From Candidatus Scatovivens sp. (lineage in GTDB: Bacteria; Bacillota; Clostridia; TANB77; CAG-508), in the NCBI GenBank assembly GCA_045613965.1, contig JAZLBY010000065.1, positions 1 to 58,279 on the forward strand: a stretch of DNA of 58,279 bases, in the 5' to 3' direction. The translations under genes and the position numbers were made by a program. The notes under the pieces are model-generated. The model was not told the DNA's origin, ran no database searches, and saw only the letters and a program-made list of their open reading frames with translations. Of the stretch, positions 11,545 to 51,024 are shown piece by piece (the first letter of the stretch is position 1; the number at the start of each line of letters is the position of its first letter).

Positions 11545-12201
11545 TTAGTATTTGGTTGTAAAGAAAGTCGTTTCTACTCCTTGATCAGTATACAGTTCAA
11601 TGCGGTATGTTACAAATTTGGCATTAGTTCCAAAATCTACTGTAACAGGTACTGCAGGAATGAAATATTGATCGTTTCCGCGATATTCACCTTCGGTCAT
11701 AAACCAGGTGTAACTTCCGGAAGTTTGATAGGAAATAGAAAGAGCTTCGTAGTTACAGTCGATAACGACAATGTAGCCATTATCACCCCAAAATACGGTT
11801 GGCTGGTTGGTTGATTTCCAATCACTAACAATCTTGTTTGTGTATGATGGTACAACTTTATTCCAGGACTCGATGTTGGGATTATAGACTGTAACAGTGG
11901 TCGATGTGAAAAAGAGTGGCAGGGTAATCCATGCTATGACAGCAAATACCAAAAAACAAATGAAGCCTGTAAGTTTTGGATGCTTTAAGGCAAAGAACTT
12001 GTTTCTGATGATTGTGCTGTGCTTGGTCTTGGTAACCTCGGGGATGAACCGTGCAAAGGGTCTTTCTTCGAACATCTTAAACCTCATTCTCCCACATGTT
12101 TGGCAGTGGGCACCATCACGAGAGTGTAGTAAGAGACGGGTAACCCACCACAGAAAAAAGAGTATAAATACTCCTAAAGATATTATATCACGGGTTGACA
12201 T
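11545..12201 (-). CDS. hypothetical two-TM membrane protein, compositionally foreign (higher G+C)
   Basis: Minus-strand ORF. I prefer the ATG at 12201 over the TTG at 12210. Two TM segments (ISLGVFILFFLWWVTRLLL, GFICFLVFAVIAWITLPLFF) flank a basic loop with HCQTCGRMR, followed by a ~125-aa beta-rich domain. 39 G+C in the 100 nt I counted (11601-11700). Confidence 0.6.
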   Translation of the reverse strand: MSTRDIISLGVFILFFLWWVTRLLLHSRDGAHCQTCGRMRFKMFEERPFARFIPEVTKTKHSTIIRNKFFALKHPKLTGFICFLVFAVIAWITLPLFFTSTTVTVYNPNIESWNKVVPSYTNKIVSDWKSTNQPTVFWGDNGYIVVIDCNYEALSISYQTSGSYTWFMTEGEYRGNDQYFIPAVPVTVDFGTNAKFVTYRIELYTDQGVETTFFTTKY

Positions 12202-12293
12202 AAAAGTCAAAAATGGTTGAATTTATAAGCTATTTATGATAATATGGATAAGCATGATAAATAAATATTTAACATGAATTGGAGGAATATCTT

Positions 12294-13288: not shown

Positions 13289-14236
13289 ATGAAAAATGAA
13301 AAAATCACGTACAAATCAGCAGACAAAAAACACATGATCAATGCGATCGAATGGTCGCCTGACAACGGCGTAGAGCCGATAGCTGTTCTTCAGATTGCGC
13401 ATGGCATAACCGAACATATCGGAAGATATGAAGCTTTTGCAAAGTATCTGACCAGCAAGGGATTCGTTGTTGTCGCAAATGATCATCTCGGTCATGGTAT
13501 GTCGGGTGCAGCCGACAATGGACCTACCATGTATTTCGGAAAGCAAGGTAGCTGGTGGTACGTTGTGAAGGATATGAACACTCTGCTTGAGAAGACCAAG
13601 GCTAAATACCCTGATCTTCCTTACGGCATGCTAGGGTTTTCCCTGGGTTCCTATCTGGTAAGAACGTATCTGATCGATTATCCGGGCAATGTTGATGCCG
13701 CCATCATAATGGGAAGCGGCGACAAGTCTAAAGTGGAGATCGGTCTCGGCTTATTTGCTGCTTGGATTGGCAAAGTAAAAGACGGTGATGATGGAGAAAG
13801 TGATCTTATTGATGATCTTGCCTTTGGCGTCTACAATAAGCACTTTGAACCTCAGACTACCGAATTTGAATGGCTTTGCTCTAATCGTAAAGCAATCAAC
13901 CAGTATGTGGGTGACCGTTTAAGAGGCCACAATGTTACTCCGGGTCTGTTTAGAGAAATGCTCAGGGGCATGTCTTATACAGCAGAACCGAAGAATTTGG
14001 TGAAGATGTGGCGAAAGCTGCCGGTTCTTGTAATCTCTGGTGAGGAGGATCCGGTAGGTGACTTTGGTAATGCAGTCGGTAAGACTTACACCAATTTCAT
14101 TCGTGCAGGAGTACGTGATACAACCTTGGTAATGTATCCCGGACTTCGTCACGACCTGCTTCATGAAACCGAACATAAGAAGGTATACGAAGACGTGTAC
14201 AGCTGGCTCAACAGCAAACTGCTTAGAGCACGCTAA
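13289..14236 (+). CDS. alpha/beta hydrolase, lysophospholipase / monoacylglycerol lipase-like
   Basis: The ATG at 13289 follows RBS aaggggg; the 13232 start in the ORF track is an upstream extension. Motifs HGITEHIGRYE, nucleophile elbow GFSLGS, C-terminal RHDLLHE. 50 G+C in the 100 nt I counted (13501-13600). Confidence 0.8.
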   Translation: MKNEKITYKSADKKHMINAIEWSPDNGVEPIAVLQIAHGITEHIGRYEAFAKYLTSKGFVVVANDHLGHGMSGAADNGPTMYFGKQGSWWYVVKDMNTLLEKTKAKYPDLPYGMLGFSLGSYLVRTYLIDYPGNVDAAIIMGSGDKSKVEIGLGLFAAWIGKVKDGDDGESDLIDDLAFGVYNKHFEPQTTEFEWLCSNRKAINQYVGDRLRGHNVTPGLFREMLRGMSYTAEPKNLVKMWRKLPVLVISGEEDPVGDFGNAVGKTYTNFIRAGVRDTTLVMYPGLRHDLLHETEHKKVYEDVYSWLNSKLLRAR

Positions 14237-35974: not shown

Positions 35975-36074
35975 TAAATAAGCTGTTCACATAAAAGGCA
36001 CAATTGCATCATTAATAAGTCAAACAAATTGGTTATTATTAAAGCAATTCTTTTTATAAGGAGGGAATATCCCA

Positions 36075-36311
36075 ATGTTAGAACAAAACAACGCGACTAC
36101 TTACGAGGTAACCCTGGCAACTTGTCCCAAATGTGGTGCAACATGTGTTGAAGGCCATGATAACGATGGTCAGATCATGTGTGCAGCCTGCGGATTGTCT
36201 TTTATGCCTAAGGAAACGAAGGCTATCAGCGACGCAGAGTACAGACAGATGTCCAAGGAAGCAACTCAGAGATTTGACCGCGGTGGATGGACAGCTTTCA
36301 TTGTTAAGTAA
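36075..36311 (+). CDS. small zinc-ribbon protein (CxxC-N15-CxxC), compositionally foreign
   Basis: RBS aaggaggg upstream. 78 aa with C17xxC20 ... C36xxC39 plus C24. My hand count is 110 G+C in 237 nt (about 46%). Confidence 0.65.
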   Translation: MLEQNNATTYEVTLATCPKCGATCVEGHDNDGQIMCAACGLSFMPKETKAISDAEYRQMSKEATQRFDRGGWTAFIVK

Positions 36312-36338
36312 TTTAGATTCCCAAAAAACACAAAACGG

Positions 36339-36363
36339 CCAGAAGAGACTGCTCTTCTGGTTT
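36339..36363 (+). terminator. GC-rich hairpin after the small zinc-ribbon gene (weak U-tract)
   Basis: Stem ccagaagag/ctcttctgg with loop actg, followed by TTTgtgcaTTTT. Confidence 0.5.
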
Positions 36364-36380
36364 GTGCATTTTATGAGAAG

Positions 36381-36409
36381 TTGAAAAAATCTTGAAAATG
36401 TAGTATAAT
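36381..36409 (+). promoter_or_regulatory. promoter (TTGAAA-17 nt-TATAAT)
   Basis: -35 at 36381-36386. -10 at 36404-36409. Confidence 0.6.
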
Positions 36410-36441
36410 ATAAGAAGATTTAATTATAAAGGAGTTAATAT

Positions 36442-36981
36442 ATGACAAACGAACAATTATTATTAACTGAAAATATTTTAATTGATGCTGTAAAAGCATT
36501 TCATGATTTAGATGATAAGCAAAAAAGAGAAGAGTATGTAAGAGAATATACACTAGAATTTTGTAAGGAACATAAAATAGACCCAAAAGAAGCTATAGAC
36601 GTTTTAAATAAATATTTTGAAAGAAGAAGAAAAGATGACACTCTGTTTAATTTTGAACACTATAAAGGTAAAAAGACTTTGGAAAAAATAATTCTTTCAG
36701 ATAAATTAAGTGATAGTAAAGTGGCATTAATTGAAGCGGATTTAATTAATGCAATTAGAGCATTTCATGAAATATCAGATCCTGAAGAAAGAAGTAAAGC
36801 TATTAAAGAATATACATCGACATTTTGTGAAGAGAATGATGTTAAACCAGAACAAGTTCTTCCAATTGTAAAGAAATTCTTTAAAGAGCAAGCAAAGAGA
36901 AATACAATGTTTAAATATGAACATTATCAAGGAAAAGATACATTAGATAAACTAATGTTACCAGAAAAAGATGAAAGATAA
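36442..36981 (+). CDS. hypothetical protein made of two tandem ~83-aa repeats
   Basis: RBS aaaggag upstream. Residues 6-88 and 94-176 align without gaps, sharing A(F)H..D...EYT..FC.E...P....K.F......T.F..EHY.GK.TL.K..L. G+C is native-like and low (24 of the first 100 nt). Confidence 0.7.
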   Translation: MTNEQLLLTENILIDAVKAFHDLDDKQKREEYVREYTLEFCKEHKIDPKEAIDVLNKYFERRRKDDTLFNFEHYKGKKTLEKIILSDKLSDSKVALIEADLINAIRAFHEISDPEERSKAIKEYTSTFCEENDVKPEQVLPIVKKFFKEQAKRNTMFKYEHYQGKDTLDKLMLPEKDER

Positions 36982-36995
36982 TAATATTATAGAGT

Positions 36996-37028
36996 AAGAA
37001 AGGTTTTATGGACCTTTCTTATTTTTTT
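36996..37028 (+). terminator. intrinsic terminator
   Basis: Stem aagaaaggt/acctttctt is followed by aTTTTTTT. Confidence 0.8.
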
Positions 37029-37037
37029 GTAAATAAG

Positions 37038-37066
37038 TTGACATAAGTAAATAAAAGTAGTAATAT
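37038..37066 (+). promoter_or_regulatory. promoter (TTGACA-17 nt-TAATAT)
   Basis: -35 at 37038-37043. -10 at 37061-37066. Hairpin TAGGG-gtaatat-CCCTA at 37072-37088 sits at the predicted 5' end of the transcript. Confidence 0.6.
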
Positions 37067-37117
37067 GAACTTAGGGGTAATATCCCTATAGAATATATAA
37101 GCGTGAGGTAATTGGCC

Positions 37118-37342
37118 ATGAAGACGAACTGGGAAAAGATCATCGAGGAATGCAACCAGGAATGTCAATCTTGTCGTGAAGACTTTGAGAAAGCGGGTGT
37201 AGACTTTTCACACACAATGTGTCGAGGGTGCGCCAACGGTCACAAACTTCATAACGCGCTATGTCGGGTAAGTCCAGCTGAGAAGGCTTGGGGAAACCTT
37301 GACTGGAATTCAAGTAGGTACGAGAACTATTACAATGGATAA
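37118..37342 (+). CDS. small Cys-rich protein (CxxxCxxC-N15-CxxC...C), compositionally foreign
   Basis: The ATG at 37118 follows gtgagg; the ORF-track start at 37112 is a TTG. 74 aa with 6 Cys. My hand count is 103 G+C in 225 nt (about 46%). Confidence 0.6.
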   Translation: MKTNWEKIIEECNQECQSCREDFEKAGVDFSHTMCRGCANGHKLHNALCRVSPAEKAWGNLDWNSSRYENYYNG

Positions 37343-37361
37343 GTGCCAGTAACTTGAATGG

Positions 37362-37405
37362 AAAGCAGAACACAAAAGTCTAGTATTTTGTAGTCTGCTT
37401 TTTTT
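37362..37405 (+). terminator. intrinsic terminator (long interrupted stem)
   Basis: Outer stem aaagcaga/tctgcttt and inner stem acaaaa/ttttgt, followed by TTTTTT. Confidence 0.7.
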
Positions 37406-41113: not shown

Positions 41114-42820
41114 ATGAGTAAAGAGAGAACTTTTTTAGAAATCAAAAATCTAAAAGATATGTTAAACAAGACGAAAGATTTATATGGAAAAAAGGCAGCT
41201 TTTAAATTAAAAGATGCTAATGGTAAATATAAAGAAATAACTCATAAAACAGTAAGAGAAGAGATAGATAAATTAGGAACAGCGCTATTAACGTTAGGAT
41301 TAAAAGGAAAAAGAGTAGCTGTAATAGGTGAAAATAGATATGAATGGGAAATTGCATACTTATCAGTAGTATGTGGCGTTGGAATTGTTGTTCCACTTGA
41401 TAAATCACTTCCAGAAAACGAATTAAAAAGAGTTATTGAAAGATCAGCTGTAGAAGCAGTTATCTTTTCAAATAAATATGAAGAATCACTAAAAAGAATA
41501 GTTATAGAGGGGACTGGAAAATTAAAACATTTAATTTCGATGGACTCTAAAACTCATGAAAATGGAATATATTCATTATCAGAACTTATAGCAATTGGTG
41601 ACGTTTTACTAAAAAACGGTAACAGAGAATATATAGATGCTGAAATTGATGAAAATGAAATGCAAATTATGCTATTTACTTCAGGAACAACATCAGAATC
41701 AAAAGTTGTTGCTTTAAGTCATAAAAATTTATGCGAAAACTTAATGGGGCTTGATAAAGTTCAAGAAGTAGATTCAAGCGATAGATTTTTATCTTTCTTA
41801 CCGATACATCACGTATTTGAATGTACAGTTGGATTTTTATATTCATTATATAAAGGTGCAAGAACATCTTTCTGTGATGGAATAAAACATATGCAAGAAA
41901 ATTATAAAGAATATGATATTACTTTTGCGGCATGTGTTCCAGCAATATTCGAAAGTATGTATAGAGGAATCTGGAAAAAGCTTGAAAAAGAAGGTAAAAA
42001 AGAAAAAGTTTTAAAACTTTTAGAAGAGCATAAAGATGCTAACATGGAAAAAAGAAGAAAAATATTTAAAGATGTACATGAAATGTTTGGTGGACGAATT
42101 AGAACTTTTATTACAGGTGCAGCAGCGATCGATAAATCAGTTGTAGCAGGATATAGAGATTTTGGTATTAATCTATGTCAAGGATATGGATTAACAGAAA
42201 CTTCGCCAATCGTTGCTATTGAAGGTGGAGATATTCACAAAATAGGATCAATTGGTAAGGTTATTCCTGGAGTGGAAGTTAAAATAGACGAACCAAATGA
42301 AGAAGGTGTTGGAGAACTTTTAGTAAAAGGGCCATCAGTAATGCTTGGTTATTACGGCAATGAAGAAGCTACAAACGAAGCTATTGTTGATGGATGGTTC
42401 CATACAGGAGATTTAGCATATATAGATGAAGAAGGATATATATTTATCAAAGGAAGAAAGAAAAGCGTTATTGTTCTAAAAAATGGTAAAAATATTTTCC
42501 CAGAAGAAATGGAAAATATCGTTAATAGAATAGAAGGTGTTAAAGAATCATTTATTTTTGGTAAATCAATAAAAAAAGAAGATCCAGATGACATTAAAAT
42601 ACATGTAAAAATTGTATATGATAAAACTGTTATGAAAATAGCTTATAAAACAGAAGATAAAGAAAAAATCCATGAAATTTTAAGTGATAAAATAAAAGAA
42701 ATTAACAATATAATGCCAGCATATAAATCTATAAGAGGAGTAGTTTTATCTGAAACTCCACTTATAAAAACCACAACTAACAAGATTAAAAGACAAGAGG
42801 AAATGAAAACAATTGAATAG
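41114..42820 (+). CDS. AMP-forming long-chain acyl-CoA (or acyl-ACP) synthetase, paralog 1
   Basis: The ATG at 41114 follows taaggagg. Motifs LFTSGTTSESK, GYGLTETSPIVA and GWFHTGDLAY. The C-terminus is KTTTNKIKRQEEMK. Confidence 0.85.
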   Translation: MSKERTFLEIKNLKDMLNKTKDLYGKKAAFKLKDANGKYKEITHKTVREEIDKLGTALLTLGLKGKRVAVIGENRYEWEIAYLSVVCGVGIVVPLDKSLPENELKRVIERSAVEAVIFSNKYEESLKRIVIEGTGKLKHLISMDSKTHENGIYSLSELIAIGDVLLKNGNREYIDAEIDENEMQIMLFTSGTTSESKVVALSHKNLCENLMGLDKVQEVDSSDRFLSFLPIHHVFECTVGFLYSLYKGARTSFCDGIKHMQENYKEYDITFAACVPAIFESMYRGIWKKLEKEGKKEKVLKLLEEHKDANMEKRRKIFKDVHEMFGGRIRTFITGAAAIDKSVVAGYRDFGINLCQGYGLTETSPIVAIEGGDIHKIGSIGKVIPGVEVKIDEPNEEGVGELLVKGPSVMLGYYGNEEATNEAIVDGWFHTGDLAYIDEEGYIFIKGRKKSVIVLKNGKNIFPEEMENIVNRIEGVKESFIFGKSIKKEDPDDIKIHVKIVYDKTVMKIAYKTEDKEKIHEILSDKIKEINNIMPAYKSIRGVVLSETPLIKTTTNKIKRQEEMKTIE

Positions 42821-43382
42821 TAAATGTATAGGAAAAAGAATGTTTTACTATAAATCTATAGATTCAACTCAAAAAGAAGTCTATAGAAGAATAGAAAATA
42901 AAGATATTCTTTCAGGTGATATAATAATTGCTGATATACAAACAAATGCAATTGGTACACATGGTCGACGTTGGTATACTGATACAGAAAATAATATTGC
43001 TTTTTCTCTATTTATAGAGTTAGGTGAAGAAGTAAAAATACTTGATGGTATAACAATCAGAATTGCCGAAATTTTGAAAGAAATATTTAAGGTAATATAC
43101 GATGTCGATTTAACAATTAAAGAACCAAATGATTTAATTTTAAATAGAAAAAAGATTGGCGGTATTTTAACCGAAACTAAAGTATGTGGTAACATTGTAA
43201 AATATATTGTTCTAGGAATAGGAATTAATACAAATCAATTAGTTTTTGATGAAAATATAGAAAAAATTGCAAGTTCTATAAAAAAAGAAACTAAAATAAT
43301 TATCGATAATAATAAAATAATATATGAATTTTTATATAGATTTGCAAAAGAAATCGATATTAGGATTGGAGAAAAACTATGA
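42813..43382 (+). CDS. birA: short biotin--protein ligase (group I, catalytic domain only)
   Basis: 189 aa. Motifs YYKSIDSTQ, QTNAIGTHGRRWYT (divergent GRGRxGRxW), KIGGILTE and LGIGINTN. No N-terminal HTH, and apparently no C-terminal SH3-like domain. Overlaps the upstream stop by 8 nt. Confidence 0.7.
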   Translation: MNSKCIGKRMFYYKSIDSTQKEVYRRIENKDILSGDIIIADIQTNAIGTHGRRWYTDTENNIAFSLFIELGEEVKILDGITIRIAEILKEIFKVIYDVDLTIKEPNDLILNRKKIGGILTETKVCGNIVKYIVLGIGINTNQLVFDENIEKIASSIKKETKIIIDNNKIIYEFLYRFAKEIDIRIGEKL

Positions 43383-44308
43383 GAATTGGATTGCTATTTC
43401 CTGGACAAGGATCACAAAGCCTTGGAATGGGAAAAGATATTTACAATGATTATGAAACATACAGAAATGTTGTAAAAAAAGTGAATGAATATACGGGTTT
43501 GAATTTAGAAGAAATTACTTTTAATTCTTCTGAAGAAATATTAAATCAAACTAAAAATACTCAAATCGCAATACTTACAATGAGTTTAGGTATACTTGAA
43601 ATCTTAAAAGAAAATAAAGTAAATGCAGAAGCTTCATTGGGCCTAAGTTTAGGCGAATATGGAGCTTTAATTTTTGGCCAAATTTTAAGTTTAGAAGATG
43701 GCGTAAAAATAGTTAAAAAAAGAGGCGAAATAATGCAAGACCTTTGCCCTGAAGGAGATTGGGCTATGGCAGCGGTTCTTGGACTAGATGAAAAAATAGT
43801 AAATGAAGTTTGCTTAAATGCAACAAAAGGATTTATTTCAGCAGCAAATTATAATTGTCCAGGACAAATAGTTATTTCAGGAGAAAGAATTGCTTTAGAA
43901 GAAATAACAGAAAACTTAAAAGCTAAAGGTGCTAAAAGAGTAATTGAACTAAATACAGCTGGACCATTTCATACAAAAATGCTTAAAGATGCATCAATAA
44001 AATTGAGAGAAGAATTAGAAGATATTACAATTAATAGTTCTAAAAATGTAGTAATTAAAAATATTGATGGTAAGGCTTATAAAGATTCAGAGGATGTTAA
44101 AGATATTTTATCTAAACATATAACCAATCCAGTAAGATTTGAGGACGGAATAAAAGAAATGATTGATATGGGAATTGATACATTTGTAGAAATAGGACCA
44201 GGTAAAACATTATCAGGATTTGTTAAAAAGATAAATAAAGATGTAAAAGTGTTAAATATAAATAACAGTGAATCTTTAAAATTAGCGTTAGAAGAATTAA
44301 GTATTTAG
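43379..44308 (+). CDS. fabD: malonyl CoA-ACP transacylase
   Basis: Motifs LFPGQGSQ, GLSLGEY and GPFHT. ATGA overlap with birA. Confidence 0.93.
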   Translation: MRIGLLFPGQGSQSLGMGKDIYNDYETYRNVVKKVNEYTGLNLEEITFNSSEEILNQTKNTQIAILTMSLGILEILKENKVNAEASLGLSLGEYGALIFGQILSLEDGVKIVKKRGEIMQDLCPEGDWAMAAVLGLDEKIVNEVCLNATKGFISAANYNCPGQIVISGERIALEEITENLKAKGAKRVIELNTAGPFHTKMLKDASIKLREELEDITINSSKNVVIKNIDGKAYKDSEDVKDILSKHITNPVRFEDGIKEMIDMGIDTFVEIGPGKTLSGFVKKINKDVKVLNINNSESLKLALEELSI

Positions 44309-44317
44309 GAGGAAATT

Positions 44318-45052
44318 ATGGATAAAGTTGCATTAATAACAGGAGCTGCTCGTGGTATTGGAAAACAAATAGCAATAACACTTGCAAAAGAAGGATATAA
44401 CATTGCTTTAAATTATAGAACAAATACAGATTCAATTATTGAATTAAAAGATCAAATTGAAAGTTATGGAGTAAAGTGTCTTTTGATTCAAGGAGATGTA
44501 TCAGTATATGAAGATACTGAAAGAATGACAAATGAGACAATAGAAGAATTCGGTAAAATTGATGTTTTAGTAAATAACGCTGGAATAACAAAAGATACAT
44601 TACTTTTAAGAATGAAAGAAGAAGATTTTGAAAGCGTAATAAATGTTAATCTTATCGGTACATATAACATGACTAAAAATGTATCAAGTCATATGATGAA
44701 AGCAAGAAATGGTAGAATAATTAATGTTTCTTCAGTAGTTGGTGTTTCAGGTAATGCAGGACAATCAAATTATTCTGCATCAAAAGCTGGAATTATAGGA
44801 TTTACAAAAAGTTTAGCTAAAGAATTAGCATCAAGAAATATTTTAGTAAATGCCGTAGCACCAGGATTTATTGAAACAGATATGACAAAAGTTTTAAAAG
44901 ATGATGTTAAAGAAAAAATATTTGAACAAATTCCTTTAAAAAGAGAAGGAAAAGCAGAAGAAGTTGCAAATGTTGTTAAGTTTTTAGCATCTAATGATAG
45001 CAGTTATATTACAGGACAAGTAATAAATATTGATGGTGGAATGTTAATGTAA
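44318..45052 (+). CDS. fabG: 3-oxoacyl-ACP reductase
   Basis: SDR motifs TGAARGIG, NNAG and YSASKAG. Confidence 0.93.
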   Translation: MDKVALITGAARGIGKQIAITLAKEGYNIALNYRTNTDSIIELKDQIESYGVKCLLIQGDVSVYEDTERMTNETIEEFGKIDVLVNNAGITKDTLLLRMKEEDFESVINVNLIGTYNMTKNVSSHMMKARNGRIINVSSVVGVSGNAGQSNYSASKAGIIGFTKSLAKELASRNILVNAVAPGFIETDMTKVLKDDVKEKIFEQIPLKREGKAEEVANVVKFLASNDSSYITGQVINIDGGMLM

Positions 45053-45064
45053 GGAGAAATAAAT

Positions 45065-46300
45065 ATGGAAAGAAGAGTTGTAATTACAGGATTAGGAGCG
45101 ATAACTCCGATAGGAAACACATCTAAAGAGATGTGGGATTCTATTAAAGATGGTAAAAGTGGTATAGATGAGCTAACTTTAATTAATTCTGAAACATTTA
45201 AAACAAAACTTGCTGCTGAAGTTAAATCTTATGATCCTCAAAAATATTTTGAAGTTAAAGCTGCAAAAAGATTAGACAGAGATTCTCAATTTGCAATGAT
45301 AGCAGCAAGAGAAGCTTTAGAAGATAGTAAATTAAATAGTGATAATGCAGATTTTAATAATATTGGAATTTATATTAGTTCTGGTATAGGTGGATTTAAT
45401 ACAATAGAAACTCAATGTAATACATGTAATGAAAAAGGAAATTCTAGAGTATCACCAATGTTTATTCCAATGGGAATCTGTAATATGCCAGCAGGAAATG
45501 TTGCGATAGATTTAGGGTTAAAAGGTTCATCACTTGCGATAGTAACAGCATGTGCATCATCAACACATTCAATTGGTGAAGCATATAGAACTATAAAACA
45601 TGGATATGAAGATGTTATATTTGCAGGTGGAGTTGAAGCTGCAATAACACCAACAGCTATAGCTGGATTTGAGAATATGAAAGCTTTATCTAATGCTACA
45701 GACAAAACAAGAGCAAGCATTCCATTTGATAAAGAAAGAACTGGATTTGTAATGGGAGAAGGCGCTGGAGTAGTTGTTTTAGAAGAATTAGAACATGCTA
45801 AAAAAAGAGGTGCAAAAATATATGCTGAAGTAATTGGATATGGAGCAACATCTGATGCTTATCATATAACATCACCAGAACCAGATGGTGAAGGAGCAAC
45901 AAGAGCAGTTACAAGAGCTTTAAAAGATGCTGGAATTGATAGCACTGAAGTAGATTATATAAATGCACATGGTACTTCAACACATTTAAATGATTCAATA
46001 GAAACAAAAGTAGTAAAAAAAGTATTTGGCGATAATTCTAAAGTAAGAGTAAGTTCTACTAAAGGAAATACAGGACACTTACTTGGAGCTGCTGGAGCTG
46101 TAGAAGCGATTATATCAGTAAAAGCAATTGAAGAAGGAATACTTCCAGCAACAATTAATTATAAAGAAAAAGACGAAGAATGTGATCTAAATTTAGTAGT
46201 AAATCAATGTGAAAAACAAAATATAAATATTGCAATGTCAAATTCATTAGGATTTGGTGGTCATAATGCAAGTATTATCTTTAAAAAATTTGAAGGTTAA
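45065..46300 (+). CDS. fabF: 3-oxoacyl-ACP synthase II
   Basis: Active-site Cys in [18 protein letters not shown] and GHLLGAAG motifs. Confidence 0.93.
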
Positions 46301-46314
46301 GGAGGATAATCAAA

Positions 46315-46758
46315 ATGGAATATGACAAAATTAAACAATTAATTGAAGATATGGGAAACTCAAAAATTACTTCACTTGATATAGAATTTCCAGATGGAAT
46401 GAAAGTTAAAATGGAAAAAGGAGTTTCTAATGTTAAAGTTATAGAAACAACTACTTCTGTAGAAGAACCTATCATGAAAGAAACAGTAGTAAAAAGCGAA
46501 GAAATAAAAGAACCTAAAGAAGATGGAAAAATAATAAAATCTCCAATGATTGGAACATTTTATGCTAAACCTTCACCTGATAGTAAACCATATGTAGAAG
46601 TAGGAACAACAGTTAAAAAAGGTACAGTGTTATGCATTGTTGAAGCAATGAAATTAATGAATGAAATTGAATCTGAGTTTGACGGAAAAATAGTTGAAAT
46701 ATTAGTTAAAGACGGTGAAACTGTAGATTACGGAAAACCACTTTTTAAAATAGTATAA
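46315..46758 (+). CDS. accB: biotin carboxyl carrier protein of acetyl-CoA carboxylase
   Basis: Biotinylation motif [10 protein letters not shown]. Confidence 0.93.
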
Positions 46759-46772
46759 AAGGAGAATTTAAT

Positions 46773-47195
46773 ATGCTAAATAAAGAAGAAATTAAAGAAA
46801 TAATTCCACAAAGAGATCCATTTTTGATGATCGATGAAGTAGAAGAATATGTACCAGGAGAATCTTGCACTGCATATAAAAATGTAGATGAAAATGAGTG
46901 GTATTTTAAAGGACATTTTCCTGGAAATCCAATTATGCCTGGCGTATTAATTACAGAAAGTTTAGCTCAAGCTGGAGCTGTTGCAATTTTATCTATGCCT
47001 GAAAATAAAGGTAAAAATGCATTGTTTGGTGGAATAAATAATATGAAATTTAAAAAGATGGTTGTTCCTGGAGACAGATTAAAATTAGAAGTTAAAATAA
47101 TAAAAAGGAAAGGTCCAATCGGAGTTGGAGAAGCATTAGCTACTGTAGATGGTGCGATAGCTGCTAAAGGAGAACTTACTTTTGCGGTAGTATAA
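46773..47195 (+). CDS. fabZ: 3-hydroxyacyl-ACP dehydratase
   Basis: Motif HFPGNPIMPGVLITESLAQAG. Confidence 0.93.
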   Translation: MLNKEEIKEIIPQRDPFLMIDEVEEYVPGESCTAYKNVDENEWYFKGHFPGNPIMPGVLITESLAQAGAVAILSMPENKGKNALFGGINNMKFKKMVVPGDRLKLEVKIIKRKGPIGVGEALATVDGAIAAKGELTFAVV

Positions 47196-47211
47196 ATGAA
47201 AGGATATTTAT

Positions 47212-48546
47212 ATGAATAAAATATTAATAGCAAATCGTGGTGAAATTGCAGTTAGAATAATTAGAGCATGTAAAGAAATGAATATAAAAACAGTTGCTGT
47301 TTATTCAGAAGCAGATAAAGATGCTCTTCATGTAAAACTAGCAGACGAAGCTGTTTGTATAGGACCTGCAAATTCACAAAAAAGTTATTTGAATATAAAA
47401 AATATTATAGGTGCAGCCAATATTACTGGTGCTGATAGTATTCATCCGGGTTTTGGTTTTTTATCTGAAAATTCACAATTTGCATCAATTTGTGAAGAAT
47501 CTAATATTAAATTTATTGGACCTAAAAGTGATGTAATTAATCTTTTAGGAAATAAATCTAATGCAAAAGATATGATGAAAAAAGCTGGTGTACCTGTTAT
47601 TCCAGGATCAGATGGAAGTATAACTGGTATAAAAGAAGCAAAAGAAATCTGTGAAAAAATAGGTTATCCTGTAATATTAAAAGCAGCAAGTGGCGGTGGA
47701 GGAAAAGGTATAAGAATAGTTGAATCAGAAGCTGCACTTGAACAAGCTTATAATTTAGTAAAACAAGAAGCTAAAGCATCATTTAATGATGATGAAATTT
47801 ATATAGAAAAATTTATAAGAAATCCAAGACATGTTGAAATACAAATTTTAGCGGATGAACATGGAAATGTTGTACATTTAGGTGAAAGAGATTGTTCTAT
47901 TCAAAGAAGACATCAAAAAATGATAGAAGAAACTCCATCTACTGCTATAGATGAAAAAATAAGAAATAAAATGGGTGATGCTGCTGTAAAAGCTGCTAAA
48001 GCAACTGGGTATACAAGCTGTGGTACAGTTGAGTTTTTGGTAGATGATGAAAGAAATTTCTATTTTATGGAAATGAATACAAGAATTCAAGTAGAACATC
48101 CAATAACTGAAGAGAGAACTGGAATAGATATAGTTAAAGAACAAATTAAAATTGCAGCTGGTGAGAAATTAAAATTTAAACAAAAAGAAGTAACATTTAG
48201 AGGTCATTCTATAGAATGTAGAATAAATGCTGAAAATCCAAGTAAAAACTTTATGCCATCTCCGGGAAAAATAACAGGTTTATATTTACCAGGAGGAAAT
48301 GGAATAAGAATTGATACAGCTATTTATGAAGGATATACAATATCTCCACATTATGATTCTATGATAGCTAAAATTATTGTACATGGAGTAACAAGAAATG
48401 AAGCTATTGCAAAAATGAAAAGAGCATTAGAAGAATTAGTAATTGAAGGTGTTGAAACAAATAGAGATTTCTTGTTTGAGATAATTAAAACTCCAGATTT
48501 TATAAGAGGAAATTTTGATACATCTTTTATTGAAAAGAATTTTTAA
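47212..48546 (+). CDS. accC: biotin carboxylase subunit of acetyl-CoA carboxylase
   Basis: Motifs [23 protein letters not shown]-grasp GGGGKGIR and [14 protein letters not shown]. Confidence 0.95.
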
Positions 48547-48561
48547 AAGGAATGAAAAATT

Positions 48562-49398
48562 ATGATAGTTGATAAGATTAAAAAAAGAAATCCTTCACTT
48601 AAAAAAATAGAAAATAAAGTAGATATTCCAGTTGGAAAATGGATTAAATGTGATTCATGTAAAGAAATTATTTATAAAGATATTTTAAATGAAACATTAA
48701 ACACATGTCCTAATTGTGGTAATTATTTTAGAATGCATATTGCAAAAAGATTAAAACAAATAATTGATGATAATACATATGAAGAATTTGATTTAAAAAT
48801 AGATTCAACAAATCCATTAAATCTTGAAGATTATCCTAAAAAATTAAAATCTTTAAGAGATAGAACAGGACTAGAAGAAGCTGTAACATGTGGAATCGGA
48901 AAAATTAATGGTGAGAACACTGTAATATGTATAATGGATAGTGGTTTTTTAATGGGAAGTATGGGCGCAGTAGTTGGTGAAAAGATTACATACGCTATAG
49001 AAAAAGCTATAGAAAAAAGATATCCTTTAATAATATTTTCTGTTTCTGGTGGAGCTAGAATGCAAGAAGGAATTATTTCACTTATGCAAATGGCAAAAAC
49101 AACAGCTGCACTTACTAAACTTCATGATGCAGGTCTTTTATATATTTCTGTATTAACAGATCCAACTTATGGAGGAGTAACAGCATCGTTTGCAAGCTTA
49201 GGAGATATTATTTTATCAGAACCAAAAGCAATGATAGGTTTTGCCGGACCAAGAGTAATTGAACAAACAATTGGCGAAGCACTTCCAGAAGGATTTCAAA
49301 CTGCAGAATTTTTATTAGAACATGGATTTATAGATAAAATAGTTGAAAGAAAAGATTTAAAAGATACACTTTATAAGTTAATCAAATTTAACAAATAA
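48562..49398 (+). CDS. accD: acetyl-CoA carboxylase carboxyltransferase beta subunit
   Basis: N-terminal zinc ribbon CDSCKEI...[10 protein letters not shown], followed by the CT domain. Confidence 0.93.
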
Positions 49399-49422
49399 AT
49401 CATTAAGTATAGGAGGTAATGT

Positions 49423-50235
49423 ATGAAAAAAGAGTTAACAGCTTGGGATAGAGTTGAAATAGCTAGAAATCCAAAAAGAAAAACTTCAATTGAATATATT
49501 GAAAATATATTTGATGATTTTATAGAATTACATGGAGATAGAAATTATAAAGATGATAAAGCTATAGTGTGTGGTCTAGCAAGTATAGGTAATCAAAATT
49601 TTACTGTAATTGCTGAACAAAAAGGAAGAACAACTAAAGAAAATATTGAAAGAAATTTTGGTATGCCTAATCCAGAAAGCTATAGAAAAGCTATTAGATT
49701 TATGAAACAAGCAGATAAATTTAAAAGACCAGTAATAACATTTATTGATACTAAAGGTGCTTATCCAGGAATTGGAGCTGAAGAGAGAGGCCAAGGTGAA
49801 GCAATCGCTAGATCAATGTTTGAAATGGCGAGATTAAAAGTACCAGTTATTGCAATTATAATTGGTGAGGGTTCAAGTGGTGGTGCTCTTGCATTAGGTG
49901 TAGCAAACAAAGTAATAATGCTTGAAAATGCTGTGTATTCTATTTTATCACCAGAAGGTTATAGCAGTATTCTTTGGAAAGATTCATCAAGATATAAAGA
50001 AGCTGCAGAAAAAATGAAATTGACAGCTGGAGATTTATATGATTTAAATGTAATAGATAAAGTGATTAAAGAACCACGTCAAGTTAGTGATGAAGATTTT
50101 AAATTAATTTGCAATAATATACAAAAAGAAATAAAAACTACAATTAATAAATTAAAGAAATTATCAGACGAAGAAATAGTTGAGGATAGATATCAAAAAT
50201 TTAGAAGAATCGGTGAATTTGTAACGTTAAATTAA
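49423..50235 (+). CDS. accA: acetyl-CoA carboxylase carboxyltransferase alpha subunit
   Basis: Motifs FIDTKGAYPGIGAEERGQGEAIA and GEGSSGGALA. Confidence 0.93.
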   Translation: MKKELTAWDRVEIARNPKRKTSIEYIENIFDDFIELHGDRNYKDDKAIVCGLASIGNQNFTVIAEQKGRTTKENIERNFGMPNPESYRKAIRFMKQADKFKRPVITFIDTKGAYPGIGAEERGQGEAIARSMFEMARLKVPVIAIIIGEGSSGGALALGVANKVIMLENAVYSILSPEGYSSILWKDSSRYKEAAEKMKLTAGDLYDLNVIDKVIKEPRQVSDEDFKLICNNIQKEIKTTINKLKKLSDEEIVEDRYQKFRRIGEFVTLN

Positions 50236-50250
50236 AGGAGGAGTTTTTAA

Positions 50251-51024
50251 ATGTTACTTGAAAATAAAAAGATATTAATAATGGGAATTAGAAATAAATG
50301 GAGTATTGCATATGGTATTGCTAAATCAGCTTATGAACATGGTGCTAAATTAATATTCACATTTATGGGTGAAGAAAATAGAGATAAAATTGAAAGTTTA
50401 ATTTCAGAATTTGAAGGAAGTAAAGCATATACAGTTGATGGAGCATCTGAAGATGAAGTTGTTAGAGAAGCTTTTGAAAAAATAAAAGCTGAGAATGGAA
50501 AAATAGATGGATTAGTTCATGCTATAGCACATGCTAATACAGAAGATCTTCATAATGATTTTATATTTACAAGTAAAGAAGGATTTTCTCATGCTTGTGA
50601 CGTTAGTGCATATTCATTTGTATTAGTATCAAGAATGGCAAAAGAATTAGATATGTTAAATGAAGAAGCAAGTTTAATTACTTTAACATATAATGGTTCT
50701 GAAAGAGTAATTCCTGGATATAATGTTATGGGAGTTGCTAAAGCTGCATTAGAGTCAAGTGTTAGATATCTTGCAGAAAATTATGGTAGAGAAAGTATTA
50801 GAGTAAACTGTATTTCTGCTGGACCAATTAAAACATTATCAGCAAAAGGTATCAAAGATTTTAATAGTGTTTTAACAGTAGTTGAAGAAAAATCACCTTT
50901 ACATAGAAATGTTACTACTGAAGAGGTTGGAAATGTTGCAACATTTTTATTAAGTAATATGTCTAGATGTATAACTGGTCAAATTATTTTTGCTGATAGT
51001 GGATACAGTATTATGGGTGTTTAA
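50251..51024 (+). CDS. fabI: enoyl-ACP reductase (FabI type)
   Basis: Motifs [19 protein letters not shown], catalytic [13 protein letters not shown] and [10 protein letters not shown]. Confidence 0.9.

Follow-up and report, generated by a model that had tools for sequence, protein, structure and literature searches.

The locus described in this study raises the question of how two small genes rich in G and C came to lie in an AT-rich bacterial chromosome, and whether their composition was brought in recently or has been inherited with them. The locus lies in a stretch of DNA of 58,279 nucleotides (the window), which is the entire contig JAZLBY010000065.1 (C65) of a metagenome-assembled genome (MAG; G000) of Candidatus Scatovivens sp.; the MAG comprises 1.45 Mb in 99 contigs, is 83% complete and has 28% G+C. 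Ca. Scatovivens is an uncultured genus of gut Clostridia with MAGs from sheep rectum and rumen. Three open reading frames (ORFs), all on the forward strand, lie between an AI-2E transporter gene and a PHP phosphoesterase gene: P1 (36075-36311), P2 (36442-36981) and P3 (37118-37342). An earlier inspection of the letters alone (the sequence-only reading) had placed the three ORFs at the same positions, had counted about 46% G+C in the two outer genes and had remarked on their sharp contrast to the middle gene. The measured values agreed with this count, being 0.46 for each of P1 and P3 and 0.26 for P2; the G+C content of third codon positions (GC3) was 0.46, 0.49 and 0.12, respectively, and that of the flanking AI-2E and PHP genes was 0.07 and 0.09. 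The outer genes had been called foreign in composition. The comparisons reported here lead to a different answer, namely that the G/C-rich coding of P1 and P3 is apparently an inherited and maintained trait of two gene families rather than a trace of recent import, as judged from comparisons among related genomes. The whole explanation, in which P1 and P3 are two independent, inherited, GC-rich small-protein genes whose composition is held through expression control, is one to which we give about an even chance of being correct.

P1 and P3 are real, selected genes. Homologues of P1 were collected by searching 1.84 billion representative proteins with a profile, which yielded about 25 small P1-type proteins (clusters at 50% identity), and those of P3 by a word-indexed profile search, which yielded 18; alignments of 25 P1-family and 19 P3-family sequences were examined. 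No paralogue of either gene was found in genome G000, and literature searches returned nothing on the two families or on the phenomenon of GC-rich genes in Ca. Scatovivens. Three lines of evidence establish the genes as real. In comparison with the sister species G047, the ratio of nonsynonymous to synonymous divergence (dN/dS) was 0.08 for P1 and 0.11 for P3; the cysteines of both families stay invariant in sequences down to 25-30% identity; and the AlphaFold2 (AF2) models had predicted local distance difference test (pLDDT) scores of 82 and 79. Since RNA genes often form GC-rich patches in AT-rich genomes, and since long alternative-frame ORFs are present in both patches, it might be supposed that the patches are non-coding, as structured RNAs or as spurious ORFs on acquired DNA. 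However, a search of the islet and the whole window against Rfam returned nothing except one tRNA elsewhere in the window, and the folding z-scores were unremarkable, which together with a dN/dS of about 0.1, the invariant cysteines and the confident models leaves this alternative a next to negligible probability. Spurious ORFs, which the sequence-only reading had itself named as a finding that would refute its proposal, do not account for homologues that keep the cysteine spacing under such constraint.

The evidence on inheritance comes mainly from G047, whose contig C8 is colinear with the window. About 45 orthologous pairs were compared, and their dS was 0.5-1.0 (extremes excluding P1, 0.36-2.7), so that silent sites are near saturation. 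Four window genes are GC-rich, and all four lie at the same sites in G047: a gene on the reverse strand encoding a protein with two transmembrane (TM) segments and a CxxC loop (11545-12210), an alpha/beta hydrolase gene on the forward strand (13289-14236), P1 and P3. Their GC3 values in the window and in G047 were 0.41 and 0.41 for the two-TM protein gene, 0.46 and 0.43 for the hydrolase gene, 0.46 and 0.49 for P1, and 0.49 and 0.38 for P3, while the dS was 1.7-2.7 for the first two genes and 0.95 for P3. At the four-fold degenerate sites of native genes, the G+C content (GC4) is 0.04, and only 13% of the sites with G or C in one species of the pair also have G or C in the other. With a retention of 13%, neutral decay from a common ancestor would require an ancestral GC4 above 1, which is impossible, to leave 0.4-0.5 today. 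Moreover, silent changes were polarised by parsimony in three-taxon sets, the pairwise symmetry between G000 and G047 carrying no direction. Under A/T-biased mutation at a GC3 of about 0.45, neutral genes should show changes from G/C to A/T (S>W) and from A/T to G/C (W>S) in a ratio of at least 3:1. The observed S>W:W>S counts were 5:14 in P3 and 35:42, 27:26 and 15:28 in three sets for the GC-rich hydrolase. Silent changes thus run toward G/C as often as away from it, which implies a bias in fixation, whether selective or due to biased gene conversion, working against the A/T pressure of the host.

The composition also belongs to the families rather than to this locus. The GC3 of 16 P1-family members was 0.20-0.60 (one at 0.20, the others at 0.31 or above) and that of 15 P3-family members was 0.29-0.62, and the flanks of nearly all members had 0.23-0.36 G+C. 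The exceptions were three loci with flanks of 0.41-0.42, which were very short or lay inside larger GC-rich islands. Nearly all sampled members lie next to housekeeping genes on AT-rich stretches of chromosome. No homologue of P1 or P3 was found among the viral contigs of IMG/VR, the phage genomes of INPHARED or the plasmids of PLSDB, and neither these collections nor the sampled genomic contexts contained a donor or vehicle of matching composition. P1 and P3 are rare orphan families, confined to one order of AT-rich gut Clostridia with reduced genomes, in which they occur in Ca. Scatovivens and a small number of other genera. A recent import would combine atypical composition with absence from the same locus in relatives and drift toward the host composition. 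The atypical composition is plain (GC3 of 0.46-0.49 against 0.07-0.12), but the genes are not missing from the locus in relatives, no drift was seen and no donor was found. The view that foreign composition here records a recent acquisition is not supported, since the genes are syntenic across near-saturated species and have kept their G+C.

What could hold G and C at silent sites was sought in codon use and tRNA supply. Members of the two families use CAG (48-68%), AAG (35-45%), CTC plus CTG (27-42%), CCC plus CCG (45-56%) and CGG (14-20%), against 0-11% in native genes, so that P1 and P3 are enriched in codons which the genome otherwise rarely uses. The tRNA set of the genus is minimal, with 31-36 genes (only 29 in the G000 draft). 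In G047, which carries P1 and P3, and in G067, which is 100% complete, single-copy tRNAs with C at anticodon position 34 (C34) were found for Lys, Glu, Thr, Arg-AGG and Leu-UUG, and one for Gln in G067 only; each four-fold box that was decoded had a single U34 tRNA. These C34 isoacceptors are kept although native genes use the corresponding G-ending codons at only 2-11%. No tRNA-Arg(CCG) was detected in the drafts of G047, G067 and G000, with two tRNA hits left undecoded in each of G047 and G067.

Our best guess is that silent sites are under selection related to expression, acting through either codon- and tRNA-gated translation or mRNA persistence, and that this holds the composition. The unusual codon set would then act as an expression control of P1 and P3. 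Their codons would be read by single-copy C34 tRNAs (Lys-CUU, Glu-CUC, Gln-CUG, Thr-CGU) or by U34 wobble, and for the CGG codons no decoding tRNA has been detected so far. In Firmicutes, near-consensus promoters, 5' stem-loops and long terminators are features that stabilise transcripts against decay. The high G+C of P1 and P3, together with a 5' stem-loop and a strong terminator, might likewise give long-lived mRNAs in an AU-rich transcriptome, and tRNA supply or mRNA decay may determine when the proteins, which we would guess to be small metal-dependent binding or regulatory proteins, are made. Specific mRNA structure was also considered as the cause of the high G+C and was dropped, the z-scores against codon shuffles being weak.

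Several observations weigh against an inherited composition held through expression. Non-ORF DNA has 26% G+C, which is far above the native GC4, and the A/T-ending codons of native genes may themselves be selected, in which case decay in weakly expressed genes could be slower than estimated. Parsimony polarisation is rough with three near-saturated taxa, and for P3 few changes could be counted. The coding regions fold barely better than their synonymous shuffles (mean z of -1.2 for P1 and -0.6 for P3), and the tRNA sets come from draft genomes. Furthermore, P1 has a dS of 0.14 against G047, which is lower than that of any other window gene compared and six-fold below its neighbours, and the high-identity tract covers about 270 bp (36044-36311), from the ribosome-binding site (RBS) to the stop codon. 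So low a dS in so short a tract suggests that the P1 cassette was exchanged laterally between the species not long ago. The P1 family is also absent from 175 genomes of other genera within the same taxonomic family yet occurs in a genus of another family, and for this reason its lateral spread is real. Finally, the hydrolase family spans a GC3 continuum of 0.09-0.47 within the genus, as amelioration would give. Lateral movement and long residence both occur.

These same observations can be read as turnover from an unsampled reservoir of intermediate G+C, in which repeated delivery or allelic replacement supplies copies too short-lived to ameliorate. The low dS and short tract of P1, set against 0.5-1.0 for other window genes, would fit such delivery, as would the patchy occurrence of P1 across two genera of different families and of P3 across several genera, the gradient within the hydrolase family, and the fact that about 5% of the ORFs of the genome have a GC3 of at least 0.30, some of them forming multi-gene GC-rich blocks resembling mobile DNA. 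However, no homologue was found in the phage, viral-contig and plasmid collections, and almost all sampled members sit among housekeeping genes in AT-rich chromosomes. P3, the hydrolase gene and the membrane-protein gene are syntenic at dS values of 0.95-2.7, have not been exchanged recently and have unchanged GC3; the silent changes of P3 and the hydrolase show no excess toward A/T, and the control regions accompanying the genes resemble the host in being AT-rich. Turnover from a reservoir is accordingly regarded as possible and, on balance, rather unlikely.

The fixation bias itself admits a second cause besides selection. If accessory cassettes were recombination hotspots, GC-biased gene conversion (gBGC) could hold their G+C through biased repair, with no benefit to the cell. 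Evidence of recent exchange is confined to the P1 cassette, and among silent changes W>S is no less frequent than S>W, a pattern in which selection and conversion are indistinguishable in the present data. On the other hand, conversion would have to sustain a GC3 of 0.45 against 0.1 and a GC4 of 0.37 against 0.04, and the bacterial effect described by Lassalle and colleagues in 2015 is reportedly far smaller than that. In addition, the composition changes at the RBS and at the stop codon or terminator, where arbitrary recombination tracts would not be expected to end, and P3 is as GC-rich as P1 without any sign of recent exchange. Conversion is thus considered quite improbable, and maintenance through expression is kept as the preferred account.

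The proteins encoded by the two genes were unrecognised at the outset and have remained without a family assignment, neither of them reaching any Pfam threshold, and PHROGs gave no meaningful match for either. Both contain a CxxC pair separated by exactly 15 residues from a second CxxC, as had been noted, and all four cysteines are invariant in the 25 and 19 aligned sequences. From this pattern the sequence-only reading had described both as resembling zinc ribbons, which the models bear out for P1 and contradict for P3.

P1 is a protein of 78 aa, and the G+C of its gene is spread evenly over the codon (GC1/2/3 of 0.47/0.47/0.46). Its core, CPxCGAxC...CAxCGxSF, reads as a zinc ribbon, after which come a helix and, at the C-terminus, a GWxAF/Y hairpin. 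The paired cysteines are C17/C20 and C36/C39, and a fifth, C24, is conserved in at least 90% of the family and extends the pattern to CxxCxxxC...CxxC. In the AF2 model (pLDDT 82.4), strands E11-16, E23-26 and E49-52 precede helix H53-62 and strands E65-69 and E72-76, and C17/C20 and C36/C39 are set between short strands as in zinc-ribbon knuckles. P1 represents a new family with a predicted zinc-ribbon fold. The best Pfam match was Lar_restr_allev (PF14354), with an E value of 1e-4 and 22.9 bits against a gathering cut-off of 28.6, and 5 of the 25 family members matched this model at E <= 0.01. The other proteins matched by profile were all generic ribbons, eS27 and eL43 among them, searches of the PDB by sequence and by fold gave no significant match, and the best PADLOC match of P1 was weak and partial (E = 0.002).

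P1 has a control region of its own, and the region travels with the gene. An AT-rich upstream element, TTCACA-N7-CACAA-N6-CAT (35986-36010, forward strand), was recognised by homologue comparison and lies at an equal distance from the P1 ATG in at least nine loci (L069-L075, L065 and L090 included). These loci represent three genomic contexts, after the AI-2E gene, after plsC/DAGK and after cdaA, and have in common the pattern TTCACA-N7-CACAA-N6-CAT-N8-TCAAA. No other convincing copy was found in genome G000, so that a regulon motif is unsupported. On the basis of its conservation, the element is a possible regulator site or a piece of an unusual promoter; readings as a sigma-54, Rex, CRP or sporulation-sigma site were dropped by eye, as spacing or half-sites did not fit. 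A weak sigma-70-like promoter candidate, TTAATA-16-TATTAT (36012-36039, forward strand), agrees with the consensus at 9 of 12 positions, and the aligned positions in homologues read TCAAA-N13/14-ATAW. The RBS of P1, AAGGAGG, is overlapped by a small hairpin, GGGAATATCCC (36063-36073; both within 36058-36073, forward strand). This stretch is identical in G047, reads GGGAATATTCC in a related lineage and is occupied by GGCTTATGCC in two other homologues. Downstream of the gene, an intrinsic terminator with an 11-bp stem and a T-run (36337-36372, forward strand; hairpin 36337-36362) is kept in G047 with one mismatch.

P3 encodes a protein of 74 aa whose AF2 model (pLDDT 78.6) is all-helical, with helices H5-25, H32-36, H39-51, H53-60 and H66-71, and the beta-hairpin knuckles of a zinc ribbon are absent from it. 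Its paired cysteines are C16/C19 and C35/C38. The fifth cysteine, C12, is also invariant and gives C12-x3-C16-x2-C19 (CxxxCxxC) plus C35-x2-C38; in the model, C12, C16 and C19 lie on one face of helix 1. Weak matches to zf-C4pol (PF14260) were obtained for 7 of the 19 family members, the best at an E value of 0.005 and far below the threshold. P3 itself had no match in Pfam or PADLOC, and comparison with the PDB gave no sequence match and no structural match at E <= 0.001. A radical SAM reading was rejected: the motif CxxxCxxC is present, but the protein is a helical bundle of 74 aa with no Radical_SAM match in Pfam. P3 is an orphan helical five-cysteine protein and probably binds Zn or an Fe-S cluster.

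The sequence-only reading had found near-consensus promoters before P2 and P3 and terminators behind both outer genes, and all of these were recovered. The P3 promoter, TTGACA-17-TAATAT, written out as TTGACATAA...GTAATAT (37038-37066, forward strand), was supported both by detection and by family comparison. TTGACA(T/C)A...GTAnnAT, or TTGACATAA...GTAnnAT in another rendering, occurred at 13 of the 13 P3 loci examined, whatever their genomic context. At the predicted transcript start (about 37072), the sequence TAGGGGTAATATCCCTA (37072-37088, forward strand) folds into a putative 5'-terminal stem-loop. A hairpin at the predicted +1 is present in 8 of 13 family members with differing sequences (TAGAGGG/CCTCTA, TAGGG/CCCTA, GTAAT/ATTAC and GTTTGGTTTTGG/CCGAACAAA). 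By minimum-free-energy folding, P3 ends in an intrinsic terminator with a long hairpin and U7 (37360-37405, forward strand).

One link between the two control regions had been proposed, an 8-mer, AATATCCC, preceded by GGG upstream of both GC-rich genes. This claim did not hold. Three copies of the 8-mer are present in the window where 1.95 would be expected, a number reached in 28 of 100 shuffles. In the related lineage it is changed to GGGAATATTCC before P1 and to TAGGGAATACCCTA before P3. Moreover, the copy at P1 is part of a 4-bp hairpin abutting the RBS, and the copy at P3 forms the loop and 3' arm of the stem-loop at the predicted transcript start. The 8-mer was thus discarded as a signal common to both genes, its copies being of chance frequency, unconserved and placed in two unrelated small hairpins.

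It remained to be considered whether P1, P2 and P3 work together. P2 is of native composition and encodes a protein of 179 aa composed of two copies of a domain of about 90 aa. The internal duplication, noticed earlier, is borne out by the homologues, which have a single domain (88-114 aa) matched by each half of P2. The gene (forward strand) has a promoter, TTGAAA-17-TATAAT (36381-36409), that agrees with the consensus at 11 of 12 positions, and a terminator hairpin read as AAGAAAGGT...ACCTTTCTT followed by a T-run (36996-37029). The G047 locus runs from AI-2E through P1, P2, the gene for a 469-aa membrane protein, P3 and the gene for a 200-aa protein to PHP, which places two extra native genes inside the islet relative to the window. 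In a related lineage (L065-L067), the order is AI-2E, P1, P3 and PHP, and P2 is absent. Only P1 follows the AI-2E gene at the locus in G005 and G051, and P1 and P3 lie 17.5 kb apart in G020. More generally, P1 stands after AI-2E in G047, G005, G051, G064 and L065, and P3 before PHP in G047 and L065. P2 homologues elsewhere occur in unrelated contexts, far from any P1 or P3.

The occurrence of the genes was counted in 75 species genomes of Ca. Scatovivens in GTDB (1.1-2.3 Mb each) and in a wider sample of 300 genomes of the order. In the genus, P1 was found in 8 of 75 genomes and P3 in 12 of 75, with both in 5 against 1.3 expected (Fisher p = 0.002, uncorrected for relatedness). P1 lacks P3 in G008, G051 and G065, and P3 lacks P1 in 7 genomes. 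In the wider sample, one genus of another family contributed 7 genomes with P1, none of which had P3, and P3 was found in a few other genera without P1.

A functional module of two or three of these genes (toxin-antidote, anti-phage or regulatory) would account for the shared position of P1 and P3, flanked by AI-2E and PHP in each of the lineages G000, G047 and L065, and for their co-occurrence above chance, the p value ignoring the kinship of the genomes. However, P2 is dispensable, its homologues never stand beside P1 or P3 elsewhere, each gene has a promoter and a terminator of its own, each outer gene occurs repeatedly without the other, and neither PADLOC nor PHROGs gave a meaningful match. 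Because the L065 locus lacks P2, and because P1 and P3 occur apart or alone elsewhere, the three genes do not form a trio, and a module of any kind is judged very improbable. The three-gene module entertained in the sequence-only reading was accordingly set aside. In the same way, a type II toxin-antitoxin pair was rejected, given the separate promoters and terminators and the frequent occurrence of P1 and P3 alone or apart, and so was a known anti-phage system, with nothing found for P3 and a best PADLOC match for P1 that was only partial. P1 and P3 are independent, self-contained, monocistronic units, each with a family-specific AT-rich control region, RBS and terminator, and P2 is an unrelated native gene that lies by chance between them in this lineage. 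The other suggestion made at that time, two independent acquisitions at a permissive site, comes closer, since the units are indeed independent, although their co-occurrence in the genus exceeds chance.

GC-rich coding is not confined to the islet. About 138 of some 1500 crude ORFs in G000 have a GC3 of at least 0.30; some are wrong-frame or RNA artefacts, and dozens are real genes. Multi-gene GC-rich blocks occur, for example, on contigs C92, C53, C38 and C96, and may be mobile DNA. Elsewhere in the window, a fragment of thrS (39-1319) belongs to one of two forms of threonyl-tRNA synthetase (ThrRS) in the genus (loci L111-L125): of the genomes tested, 8 have a form 91-99% identical to it and 6 have one about 50% identical, which points to xenologous replacement in part of the genus, and ThrRS was for this reason not used as a marker of species distance. 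In addition, a cluster for fatty-acid synthesis and acetyl-CoA carboxylase (42813-51024) had no match in 80 kb of the colinear G047 contig, where the flanking genes match, and may represent an indel between the species or a relocation.

When a single gene has an atypical G+C content, this is routinely taken to indicate recent horizontal gene transfer (HGT). In the present case, it is apparently inherited and held against strong A/T pressure, and if this is true, composition-based calls of HGT would be misleading for such genes. An unexplained force would then act on the silent sites of these reduced-genome gut bacteria, whether codon- and tRNA-gated translation, mRNA survival or unusually strong biased gene conversion. 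Moreover, two new families of small proteins, each with a conserved control region, have been defined.

Known systems offer partial parallels. Like the HGT islets of the Lawrence and Ochman framework, P1 and P3 are gene-sized, sharply bounded patches of atypical composition with a patchy distribution among relatives. Unlike them, they occupy the same loci in near-saturated species, show no drift toward A/T, have yielded neither a donor nor mobility genes and are accompanied by host-like AT-rich promoters. At the protein level, P1 is similar in size to the Lar protein (PF14354) and to TFIIB-type ribbons and, like them, carries two CxxC knuckles on beta hairpins. It differs from Lar in its sub-threshold score, in its housekeeping neighbours and lack of any viral or phage match, and in an EGHDDD loop, the fifth cysteine and the C-terminal GWxAY hairpin, all specific to the P1 family. 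P3 is comparable to zf-C4pol, which comprises the C-terminal CysA/CysB motifs of B-family DNA polymerases, in being small and helical with cysteines on helices (a CxxxCxxC face plus CxxC); the family's matches to that model are far below threshold, and no structural match in the PDB at E <= 0.001 was obtained. P3 also presumably resembles the WhiB-like Fe-S regulators. The putative stem-loop at the predicted +1 of P3, with its counterparts in 8 of 13 homologues, is reminiscent of 5' stabilisers of the ermC, aprE and cryIIIA type. The closest parallel for the codon usage is provided by the bldA tRNA-Leu(UAA) and TTA codons of Streptomyces and by modification tunable transcripts (MoTTs), in which a small accessory gene set is likewise written in codons that the genome avoids. 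The translation of P1 and P3 would similarly lean on minority tRNAs, which are kept as single copies in the genus. The polarity is reversed, with many G/C-ending codons in an AT-rich genome, and the analogy is one of mechanism only. By this analogy, a dispersed set of self-contained small genes in AT-rich, reduced-genome gut Clostridia, P1 and P3 among them, might be written in G/C-ending codons and have its translation gated by minority tRNAs, namely single-copy C34 isoacceptors and U34 superwobble with no decoder of CGG, as the inverse of the bldA/TTA system, a generalisation that we advance as a doubtful conjecture.

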